Part shown: positions 25,233 through 28,552 of the stretch, piece by piece
How positions within the stretch are numbered: position 1 is the first letter of the stretch
How the letters are laid out: every line of letters begins with the position of its first letter
From: an uncultured Chthonomonadaceae bacterium
GTDB taxonomy: Bacteria; Armatimonadota; Chthonomonadetes; Chthonomonadales; Chthonomonadaceae
DNA length: 64,000 bases
Direction of reading: 5' to 3'
NCBI GenBank assembly: GCA_963835065.1
Contig: CAWIEK010000011.1
Span: 96,001-160,000 of the forward strand
The notes under the pieces: model-generated
Told to the model about the DNA's origin: nothing
The model's input: only the letters and a program-made list of their open reading frames with translations
The model's database searches: none
Position numbers and translations under genes: made by a program

Positions 25233-25466
25233 ACGCGCCTGGGGTCAGGCTTTGAAACCGAACAGGAACTCTGTTGCCCGCAGCCGCTTCCGTTAGCCGG
25301 TAAGGCAAAAACAGCGTATTGTACCGCGTTTTCAACACAGTGAGCAGGAGAAAAGTTGCGCGGCGTGGAAACAATCCGCACAAGCAAGCGCGAACTAATC
25401 CTGACGCTCACTTGTTTCTTGAACCGGGCGTCCGTTGATTTTGTCTGTAAAGGTTAGCCGCATCCT

Positions 25467-26846
25467 ATGAGCCACGATTCTGAGCGTTTTCCATCCGAAC
25501 TTGCCCACATTTTGTTCATGGACATTGTAGGCTATTCCCTGCTGCTCATAAACGACCAGAGGCGTGTGGTCGCCATGCTGCAAAGCCTTGTGCGCAATGC
25601 CCCGGAGTTCCAGCACGCGCAAGCAGCGGGCAGAGTAATCTCCTCAGATACAGGAGATGGATTGGCGCTGGTGTTCTTCGGCGACCCGACCTCACCGGTG
25701 TATTGCGCGGTGGAGATCGCCCGCGCGTTGCGTGAAAAGCCTGAACTACAGTTGCGCATGGGCATCAACAGCGGTCTGGTGTCGCGCACAACCGACTTTA
25801 ACGGCCATGATAAAGTCACCGGCAGTGGTATCAATATGGCGCAGCGGGTGATGGATTGTGGAAACGCGGGGCATATCTTGCTGTCGCACGATTGCGCAAA
25901 AATCATGCGTCAATTCAGCGAGTGGGCCAACGCGCTTCACGACCTGGGCGAGTATCAAATCAAACATGACCTCACCCTGCGCCTGTACAATCTGTGCATG
26001 GAGCAGGTTGGCAATCCCGCCCCGTCGCAAGCCACACCAAAAAGCGCGCCCCCTGCAAACGCGCCAAAGAACGGCAATCCGCCCGGGACAGGCGGTGCAG
26101 CGAAGCAAAATGCCGGTATGGAAAGCGGCACAGAAAGCAAGACAAAAACCAACTCGGCGGATGGCGCGGAAATGGCGTGGATACCAGCGGGAACCTTCCA
26201 GATGGGCGGGAACGGTGAATACGACGGCAAGCCGGTTCATTCGGTGACATTGTCAGGTTTCTGGATGTACAAAACGCCGGTGACAGTGGCGCAGTTCCGC
26301 ACGTACGATGCAGCGAACGGAAGCAAGTACGACTGGACGAAGAACAAACCGGATTGGGGTTGGCTGGACGAGCATCCGATGGTAAATGTCTCCTGGACAG
26401 AGGCCTCGGCGTATGCGCAGTGGGCGGGCGTCGTGCTGCCGACAGAGGCGCAATGGGAATATGCGGCGCGGGGCGGTTTTGCGGGGAAGAACTATCCCTG
26501 GGGCGATGATTGGGACGGGAGCAAATGCGCCAATTCCGTCAAGCCGAATGACTTGAAGGGCACAAAAGCAGTCAAGAGTTACGCAGAGAATGGCTGGGGC
26601 CTGTATGATATGGCGGGCAACGTGTGGCAGTGGTGCGCGGACTGGTACGACAAAGCCTACTACCAGACAGCGGCGGCCAGCCAGACCGACCCAAGAGGGG
26701 CGAGTTCGGGCACATTCCGCGTCCTGCGGGGCGGTTCTTGGGGCGGCGATTCCGAGACCTACTTCCGCTGCGCGGACCGCGACTACTACATTCCCGACGA
26801 CTGGAACGGCATTATCGGGTTTCGTTGCTGTTCTCCAGGACTGTAA
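25467..26846 (+). CDS. Adenylate/guanylate-cyclase-like domain fused to FGE-sulfatase (CLec-fold) domain; probable DGR target
   Basis: N-term MDIVGYS, TGDG, GINMAQRVMD; C-term LPTEAQWEYAARGG, GLYDMAGNVWQWC, RVLRGGSW...GFRC. Confidence 0.88.
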   Translation: MSHDSERFPSELAHILFMDIVGYSLLLINDQRRVVAMLQSLVRNAPEFQHAQAAGRVISSDTGDGLALVFFGDPTSPVYCAVEIARALREKPELQLRMGINSGLVSRTTDFNGHDKVTGSGINMAQRVMDCGNAGHILLSHDCAKIMRQFSEWANALHDLGEYQIKHDLTLRLYNLCMEQVGNPAPSQATPKSAPPANAPKNGNPPGTGGAAKQNAGMESGTESKTKTNSADGAEMAWIPAGTFQMGGNGEYDGKPVHSVTLSGFWMYKTPVTVAQFRTYDAANGSKYDWTKNKPDWGWLDEHPMVNVSWTEASAYAQWAGVVLPTEAQWEYAARGGFAGKNYPWGDDWDGSKCANSVKPNDLKGTKAVKSYAENGWGLYDMAGNVWQWCADWYDKAYYQTAAASQTDPRGASSGTFRVLRGGSWGGDSETYFRCADRDYYIPDDWNGIIGFRCCSPGL

Positions 26847-26886
26847 TGCTAACCATTTAACCTTTTACTCTTTTACTCTTTATTCT

Positions 26887-26911
26887 TTCAAGCCGGCAAA
26901 GCCGACTTGAA
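26887..26911. other. Hairpin downstream of the putative variable region (DGR cruciform-like)
   Basis: TTCAAGCCGGC-AAA-GCCGACTTGAA, 10 of 11 bp paired. Confidence 0.6.
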
Positions 26912-26997
26912 GAATCGAATTTTGAAAATTTGACGTTGTTTCAGAGTAAAGCCGAATTTTCTTTTCGCGCCGCTATGGGAAGGCAGGAATCAACGCT

Positions 26998-27123
26998 GTG
27001 GCTGGCGAAGTAAGCGCTGTTACGAAAACGTATGAGTTTTTGCTCTGGCTCCTCCCGCAAATCGCCCGCTTTCCCCGCGATCATCGCTTCACGTTGCAAC
27101 GGCGGCGTATTCGGCGGTTGTAA
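26998..27123 (+). pseudogene. avd: Truncated DGR accessory protein Avd (N-terminal ~33 aa)
   Basis: GTG start after AGGCAGGA; reads MAGEVSAVTKTYEFLLWLLPQIARFPRDHRFTL then QRRRIRRL*; matches the remembered Avd/four-helix-bundle pattern K.Y....W......FP+..+F.LG. Confidence 0.75.
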
Positions 27124-27168
27124 CCCTCGTTCCCGGATGCTCTCGCTCTTGCCGGACTTCGATACTGT

Positions 27169-27503: not shown

Positions 27504-27988
27504 TTAATAGACACCAACGAGTTTAAAAAACAGCGTATCCGCTTCGCCGCATCTATTTTCGGCGCAAAGCAAGGCCGCATAAGCCTCTCGCGCTTGCATG
27601 GTCAGGGCATGTTGTAAGCCGAACGTTTGTTCTCGCAGGGTCAGGGCGCGGGCATACAGCGGTTCCGCCGCCGGATTGCCGCTTGCCTGATACTGCTTTG
27701 CAAGGCTGTAGAGAATTTGCGCCAGCATGGGATCGTTGGCGGGCAGGGCGCGTTCCGCAATGGCAAGCAGGCGCAGATACAATTCCGTCACATTGCCGTA
27801 CTCGGCAGCTCCAAGCCGCGCGAACAATCTCCGGCGCATAGCCTGAACCCGTCAAGCGGTCGAATATATCCGTCATTCGTCACATGGTCCAACTCTTCCT
27901 GGCTTACACCTGCATCAAGCCACTCCTGATCCATCATTTCTTTTGCGCGTTGATATACCTGATCGGAACGGAGTTCTGTGGTTGTCAT
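27504..27988 (-). pseudogene. TPR-containing protein, frameshifted paralog of 28016-28552
   Basis: Three consecutive frames (27988, 27876, 27839 ORFs) align piecewise with the neighbour: WL.AGVSQEELD, DI.DRL.GSGY, DPMLA. Confidence 0.7.
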
Positions 27989-28015: not shown

Positions 28016-28552
28016 TCATACGGGCTGTAAAGCGCGGGTTTTCAGAAGCGCATTTGCTTCGCTGCTGCGGCCTTCCGCGTGGAACTTTTCGATTTGATGG
28101 TCATAAGACTGGTATAGCCGGTTCCGAGCCTCAATAGTGCGGGGATGTTCCAGGCCAAGTGTTTGGCTCCAGAGTTTTAGAACGCGCGTAAAGAGCGGAA
28201 TGGCGGATTGGTAGGCTTGATTGGCGTCGTATCCTATCGCCAGCCGATACCAGATCAGTGCCAGCATGGGATCGTCCGGCGCGAAGGCGCTTTCCGCAAT
28301 CGGCCACAGGGCATGGTAGAACGGCATTTTGTCCGATGTGGCAGGGTACTCGGTTTCCCACACGGCGCGTATGCCTTCTTCGGGGTAGCCGGAACCCATC
28401 AGTCGGTCGAGAATATCCGCGAGTTCATCCCCCTCGTCAAGTTCTTCCTGACTCACGCCTGCTTCCAGCCAGCTTGTATTGATGATTTCTCTTGCGCGTC
28501 GGTAAGCGTCTTCGCTGCGGTTCAATTGGACTTGCTGCACTGCCATAATCAC
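28016..28552 (-). CDS. TPR-containing protein
   Basis: AIPLFTRVLKLWSQTLGLEHPRT (kinesin-light-chain-type TPR). Confidence 0.75.
   Translation of the reverse strand: MIMAVQQVQLNRSEDAYRRAREIINTSWLEAGVSQEELDEGDELADILDRLMGSGYPEEGIRAVWETEYPATSDKMPFYHALWPIAESAFAPDDPMLALIWYRLAIGYDANQAYQSAIPLFTRVLKLWSQTLGLEHPRTIEARNRLYQSYDHQIEKFHAEGRSSEANALLKTRALQPV

Follow-up and report, generated by a model that had tools for sequence, protein, structure and literature searches.

The window analysed here is a stretch of 64,000 nucleotides (G000:C11:96001-160000) from the genome of an uncultured member of the Chthonomonadaceae, a family of the Armatimonadota; this genome is designated G000 (8.0 Mb in 71 contigs, 92% complete). 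A gene on the plus strand at 25467-26846 encodes a protein of 459 aa with a class III nucleotidyl-cyclase-like domain in its N-terminal part and an FGE-type CLec domain in its C-terminal part, and is followed by a pyrimidine-rich tail, a hairpin and the first codons of an avd gene (Table 1). The original prediction of a cyclase-FGE/CLec gene was confirmed: the reading frame was unbroken, Pfam matched FGE-sulfatase over aa 234-455 (E 8e-56) and Guanylate_cyc over aa 90-167 (E 3e-5), and the predicted fold of the protein resembled both FGE structures and class III cyclases. The protein was a singleton in a protein cluster database with a 90% identity threshold.

Table 1. Features of the cyclase-CLec locus, in window positions
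Feature	Position	Strand	Basis or remark
Extra segment relative to G002	25250..27164	.	xisI and the downstream convergent ORF lie ~30 bp apart at the syntenic site; edges approximate
5' leader	25317..25460	+	Partial copies at C23:26124-25988 (74%) and C44:506960-507037 (91%)
Class III nucleotidyl-cyclase-like domain, aa 1-188	25467..26030	+	Pfam, fold, alignments
Pro/Ala/Gly-rich linker	26031..26138	+	Low predicted confidence
FGE-type CLec domain	26139..26846	+	58-68% identity to the CLec domains of five kinase-CLec proteins
Variable block, 25 codons	26742..26816	+	Adenine-specific divergence
IMH-equivalent 3' end, coding for GFRCCSPGL	26817..26846	+	Nearly identical in the G020 target
Pyrimidine-rich tail	26850..26886	+	78% C/T over 40 nt
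Hairpin	26887..26911	.	11-position stem with one C-A mismatch, 3-nt loop, extendable by flanking pairs
Purine-rich Shine-Dalgarno-like stretch	26978..26988	+	Before avd; common to the G020 avd remnant
avd codons 1-33, GTG start	26998..27096	+	NF033474 match, conservation
Junction filler	27097..27164	.	8 read-through codons, then a stop at 27123

The locus is preceded by groES-groEL and then xisI and followed by TPR, GNAT-like and pseudouridine-synthase-like genes; the groE and pseudouridine-synthase-like genes carry names that we assigned from their translations. No MoxR, vWA or STAND genes were annotated among the scanned neighbors. The TPR genes at 27504-27839 and 28016-28552 are a diverged tandem pair, ~71% alike in part at the nucleotide level, and G002, a genome of the same genus, has one such gene there. 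A segment of ~1.9 kb containing the whole locus is present in G000 and absent from the syntenic site of G002, while in G001 groEL-xisI was kept but the downstream ORF was absent from that site. A search for transposon-like ends on the segment detected no direct or inverted repeat longer than 7 nt. One partial copy of the leader, on C23, precedes a protease-type gene cluster, and the other, on C44, precedes a transposase-like frame; the leader could be a mobile promoter or the end of an element. A promoter scan gave no match upstream of the cyclase-CLec gene, and the single Rfam match at the locus was below threshold.

The cyclase domain has a class III fold and retains both metal-binding aspartates and the Asn/Arg pair (D19, D64, N123 and R127). 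The canonical adenylyl or guanylyl specificity pair, which we take to be Lys/Asp or Glu/Cys and which was compared with the alignments made here, is missing, the two positions being occupied by Ser and Lys. The Lys, at residue 116, replaces an Asn present in 25 of 28 scored homologs. PADLOC defence profiles gave no matching family at an E value of 0.1 and, given this result and Lys116, the cyclase half may be inactive. A paralog within the genome, a cyclase-TIR-AAA_35 protein (C54:112301-110019), shares 70% aa and 76% nt identity with the domain; differences between the two fell 42/26/77 by codon position, with 22 of 65 fourfold sites changed, which looks like the pattern left by purifying selection. 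Proteins of the cyclase-(TIR)-AAA_35 type form an expanded family on G000 contigs C54, C7, C57, C58, C60 and C68, several of them frameshifted, and are frequent across the phylum sample. They carry a noncanonical Asn at a base-specifying position and possibly make an unusual cyclic nucleotide. The window domain resembles both these proteins and class III cyclases in general (PF00211; PDB 3mr7, Ma1120 4wp8 and Rv1900c 1ybt) in fold, aspartates and Asn/Arg pair; it differs from the latter in having no canonical specificity pair and from the former in being joined to CLec in place of TIR-AAA.

The two halves of the protein have different nearest relatives, kinase-CLec proteins (58-68%) for the CLec half and the cyclase-TIR-AAA_35 protein of the same genome for the cyclase half, and among the 29 best other cyclase loci of the phylum sample 24 were accompanied by an AAA domain and only 1 by FGE. 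For these reasons the gene probably combines, as a chimera, a resident cyclase module with a CLec module from the kinase-CLec lineage, with the fusion junction likely inside the linker. Among the matches listed, 11 other proteins contained both domains. Four of these (P0050, P0062, P0065 and P0066) share a constant C terminus, while four cyclase-CLec homologs (P0023, P0026, P0038 and P0096) have ends that look variable by eye.

In the CLec domain, the variable block forms the loop that follows the RGGS motif, and both of the cysteines present there in 6muj and 2q17 are missing from it; with no loop cysteine pair, the domain does not appear to be a formylglycine-generating enzyme. The CLec part of the structure model was of low confidence over aa 383-449, in the region of this loop. 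The C-terminal codons quoted in the original prediction were present as given, and the proposal that most of them end in C or T and can be derived from an Asn-rich template by changes at adenines was borne out. As the cognate template is missing, the signature was measured against five related templates in the same register and against one relative, G020. The end of the window gene differed from each of the five templates at 57 to 68% of template adenines and at 26 to 32% of other bases (each p <=0.02). Against the target of G020, the closest relative, which has the same C terminus, differences were found at 25 of 30 consensus template-A positions but at only 15 of the 81 remaining positions (p 5e-10). 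Codons that are AAY in >=60% of the five related template repeats number 13, and every one of them ends in C or T here, compared with a background of 48% in the upstream part of the gene (binomial p 7e-5). Mismatches with G020 were distributed 16/14/7 over codon positions 1/2/3 in the 25 variable codons and 42/42/98 in the 199 upstream CLec codons (Fisher p 1e-4 between blocks). On comparison with related templates and with the closest relative, the target 3' end thus carries the adenine-type divergence of a DGR variable repeat. The test for C/T-ending codons is unspecific by itself, because the end of a CLec gene on C44, with no tail, hairpin or avd seen adjacent to it, also scored 11 of 13. 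The latter gene (G000:C44:379141-377540, L008) is intact, encodes a 533-aa protein of helical-repeat-like and CLec parts and has an end that matches the template profile (E 1.5e-7); it is possibly an older, domesticated target.

The hairpin starts 40 nt past the stop codon, in the place originally indicated, while the 11-bp stem described for it was found to be imperfect, one of the 11 positions being the C-A mismatch. Folding gave a z score of -3.9 in a hand-chosen stretch of 46 nt but of -0.7 across the whole 151-nt intergenic stretch. Hairpins were found at the equivalent site in all three relatives that were folded, and 7 of the 11 related cassettes examined had at least 70% C/T at the position of the tail. 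The combination of an IMH and a downstream hairpin that characterizes a DGR is therefore present. Complementarity between tail and spacer was rejected as a feature, since none of 11 related cassettes exceeded shuffled controls.

The original prediction also held that a 41-codon ORF at 26998-27123 begins with ~33 residues of Avd, and this was upheld by an HMM search: aa 7-37 of this GTG-initiated ORF matched NF033474 at positions 3-33 of 104 (E 9.4e-7), a score below the curated cut-off, as expected of a fragment. Pfam bAvd was matched with an E value of 0.009. Likeness to full Avd stops at codon 33, so that only codons 1-33 of ~117 are present rather than a full-length gene. In comparisons with six relatives, 3 or 4 of 30 second codon positions of the stub differed, with third positions saturated, while four intact avd genes differed mutually at 4 to 7. 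As the stub shows no decay relative to intact avd genes, we infer that the cut in avd was recent. Within 27092-27160, the break coincides with the center of a 10-bp palindrome, and two motifs resembling the spacer follow shortly beyond it on the minus strand, as far apart as they are in relatives. An inverted fragment of a post-template spacer at 27097-27164, suggested by eye, was considered and rejected: on a target of just 650 nt the spacer profiles still gave an E value of 0.66, and among 3,000 random segments 521 scored equally; the two-motif pattern, defined post hoc, occurred once in the genome, at 27097-27164 itself. In G131, likeness to avd also stops at codon 33, and the spacer's 3' part is attached there (L071:290-510, G131:C15). 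A deletion hotspot at this codon was rejected, since other truncated Avd proteins break at many positions.

Related cassettes have the full order target-tail-hairpin-avd-RT-TR-spacer, with which the window agrees up to avd codon 33. The Avd fragment was matched in 8 of 61 genomes, G000 included. Among 42 genomes of the family, four match full Avd and G020 adds a 13-codon stub behind inserted IS-like DNA. All five avd-type cassettes of these 42 genomes are broken, each at a different place: at avd codon 33 in G000, at avd codon 94 in G012, at approximately avd codon 13 in G020, by a deletion from RT to template in G008 and by loss of RT, template and the 5' part of the target in G041. No avd-type RT was detected in the 42 genomes beyond the G008 fragment, and the only full DGR-type RT of the family was that of G046, whose cassette has no avd. 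In this DGR (L055, G046:C398), a target is followed by an apparently frameshifted accessory gene that looks HRDC-like and then by RT and template, and another target lies further downstream. G033 has the complete order, yet its avd is interrupted by a stop and its target is frameshifted. Similar relics without a DGR-type RT were seen in G020 and G131, both of which are 98% complete. A pattern for the template start gave three matches in five relatives, and the two that were inspected were variable ends of other CLec genes. In G014 (98% complete), no avd or DGR-type RT was detected with the queries used; this genome has at least six CLec domains clustered in tandem, whose variable-type ends differ from one another (L026, G014:C12:340983-346709).

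Across 401 genomes of the phylum, 28 avd matches were detected in 19 genomes, and these were sorted by manual reading, mostly of 1.5-kb flanks, into 12 loci with avd, RT and template, 14 broken loci and 2 that were left unsorted. This rate of decay agrees with a published survey which, according to its available text, discarded over half of its candidate DGRs because they were inactivated, matched poorly or were incomplete (PMC5758913).

The RT and template noted as missing near the locus were missing from the assembly as a whole. In the 92%-complete G000, no template repeat was detected by blastn, by an A-tolerant ungapped scan, by a TR profile or by a count of AAY codons. The TR profile gave three significant matches, all of them target ends (C11, C54 and C44), and the AAY count reached at most 6 of 25 codons over 4,218 candidate sites, compared with 11 to 16 in 12 real templates. 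No DGR RT was detected in the assembly: Pfam yielded two RTs, neither of the DGR class, one being stand-alone and adjoining CRISPR genes and an array (C49, L001) and the other matching retron type XIII, with a SWIM/BRCT-like gene alongside (C50, L002). Apart from these two, a DGR-RT profile built from 10 relatives found only two nonsignificant frames on C8; a split RT-like gene of another class lies at G000:C8:71790-70119. Three other matches of G000 to the Avd HMM were rejected as four-helix-bundle proteins (TIGR02436). At a second DGR relic, G000:C54:126575-128170 (L012, L016), a CLec gene that is frameshifted and ends in an AAC-rich stretch is followed by ~540 bp of filler, after which comes a post-template spacer of which the 3' end is present (E 3e-5).

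These results indicated that the locus holds an intact cyclase-CLec target that was likely rewritten by a chromosomal avd-type DGR, of which the template, the RT and the rest of avd were likely deleted recently; we therefore predict that the variable region no longer changes and that the protein serves as a fixed one-component receptor. In the intact cassette, the template would have been copied with errors at adenines and the copy written into 26742-26816 under the guidance of the IMH and hairpin, a form of variable-repeat rewriting established for BPP-1 in the available text of PMC3240598. A deletion, with the junction as given by the assembly, would then have removed most of avd, the RT and the template. 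Of three read runs compared with the window, one, which may be the source sample, contained short identical pieces of it, all outside the variable block and the junction, and the other two contained next to nothing of it. The variable end is predicted to have been fixed once the machinery was gone, because neither a template nor a DGR RT was found elsewhere in the assembly. The original prediction had left two readings side by side, a deleted DGR or a remote target served in trans. The former is much better supported, because of the absence of template and DGR RT from the assembly and the same in-place decay in relatives, and the latter is unlikely. Judged by its parts, the locus appears to descend from, and to work like, a cellular DGR but would fail as a functional one, having no template, no RT and no full Avd.

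The point at which the cyclase was acquired is less certain. The purifying pattern and the 22 changed fourfold sites suggest that the cyclase predates the avd cut, and fusion before the cut, such that the cyclase-CLec protein itself was the diversified target, is the somewhat favored order of events. The converse, which presupposes a relic and is compatible with it, is that the cyclase was joined only after the DGR had died and was never diversified, the gene being possibly a nonfunctional, decaying chimera. Such a late graft is a minority reading but one with substance, as the nearest CLec relatives carry kinases, G002 has no such segment at the corresponding site, Lys116 is atypical and the genome contains several broken CLec and cyclase paralogs. 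Against it stand a frame that is intact over 459 codons, the purifying codon-position pattern and fourfold changes relative to the C54 paralog, an avd stub that has not decayed and the existence of the other cyclase-CLec proteins with variable-looking ends. If it were true, the cyclase would be an accident.

Two explanations in which diversification continues were weighed. The assembly may have caught a deleted allele while other cells of the species keep an intact cassette and still diversify. The recently cut appearance of the avd stub would fit, as would the structural variants with intact RT and TR reported at the disrupted DGRs 3 and 7 in the available text of PMC10907252, but the protein is a singleton at 90% clustering and an exact 20-nt IMH pattern gave only two matches in metagenome contigs, a collection from which records very close to this genome may be absent, both unrelated and neither a cassette; we regard this population variant as improbable. 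Equally improbable is a remote target, one that an RT, Avd and template lying outside the assembled sequence would continue to mutate in trans. In its favor, the locus retains an intact IMH, tail and hairpin, the assembly lacks ~8% of the genome and both remote targets and activity in trans have been published (PMC5758913; PMC10907252, as far as their available texts go). However, 8.0 Mb of sequence contain no template or DGR RT, the family genomes contain no avd-type RT beyond the G008 fragment and one template could not serve the three variable-type ends of the genome, which are unlike one another at non-A positions as well as at the 3' end. A distant template matching at all non-A sites and a working DGR were both absent from the 92%-complete assembly. 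An ordinary FGE-like gene with downstream likeness by chance, for which the cyclase-FGE proteins with a constant C terminus could be cited, is in practice ruled out by the Avd HMM match, the layout common to intact cassettes and the A-specific signature.

For the relic of a chromosomal DGR, the original prediction had proposed a signaling-type target rather than a phage tail adhesin. This accords with the chromosomal setting and with the viral contigs, in which none of 54 candidates for Avd of this subtype was confirmed by alignment; we infer a signaling function for the cyclase-CLec protein. Class III cyclases act as dimers, and for this reason binding of a ligand at the CLec tip, 40 flexible residues away, might cluster the cyclase domains and so lead to production of a cyclic nucleotide, a model that we hold tentatively, at somewhat below even chances. 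A role in conflict or antigen sensing may be envisaged by analogy with PMC10907252, the available text of which itself treats this role as hypothetical. It is conceivable, if rather unlikely, that the protein is a single-chain programmable receptor-cyclase with a DGR-diversified tip and a nonstandard cyclic nucleotide, of which the winning variant was kept and the mutator deleted, and that the Chthonomonadaceae repeat this hit-and-run cycle with swapped effectors (cyclase, kinase, TIR, peptidase and TPR).

Several elements of the locus have precedents in the available texts of earlier studies. Degenerate DGR loci are described together with CLec targets that carry signaling domains (PMC5758913, PMC7517822 and PMC10907252), as are effector-CLec targets and the loss of the machinery once selection has acted (PMC10907252 and PMC7517822). 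The closest parallels are DGRs 1, 3, 4, 5 and 7 of Thiohalocapsa PB-PSB1, which have a chromosomal FGE-type CLec target, an N-terminal effector-type domain and key machinery that is missing or pseudogenized; unlike G000, whose assembly has no working cassette, PB-PSB1 keeps complete loci that serve some of the degenerate ones (PMC10907252). The main text of that paper contains neither 'cyclase' nor 'Armatimonad' but notes that VMAP partner proteins carry a domain generating cyclic nucleotides. In cyanobacterial DGRs, the remote variable proteins and the paralogs have N-terminal domains that are mostly Ser/Thr kinases and orthocaspases, in genomes that still hold a DGR, and in the available text the term 'cyclase' appears only once, inside the GAF abbreviation (PMC7517822). 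In Bordetella BPP-1, as here, a hairpin lies downstream of the variable repeat and is followed by avd; the window differs in having a 37-nt pyrimidine tail between gene end and hairpin, a 3-nt loop and a chromosomal host, and its relatives differ in placing the RT between avd and template (PMC3240598, available text). Searches of the literature for DGR targets joined to guanylate or adenylate cyclases, supplementary target tables aside, found no cyclase-CLec DGR target, and the available text of PMC8144416 adds nothing on cyclases.

The relic is in itself ordinary, half of the sampled avd loci being broken, in line with the discards reported in the available text of PMC5758913, and the cyclase partner looks to be the only new part of the locus. 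With it, a class III cyclase joins the effectors that occur in fusion with CLec sensors diversified by DGRs and would provide a directly measurable output. Among the cassettes of the family are several that broke independently and in different ways but left an intact target; these allow a test of whether the mutator is purged after a useful variant has been fixed.
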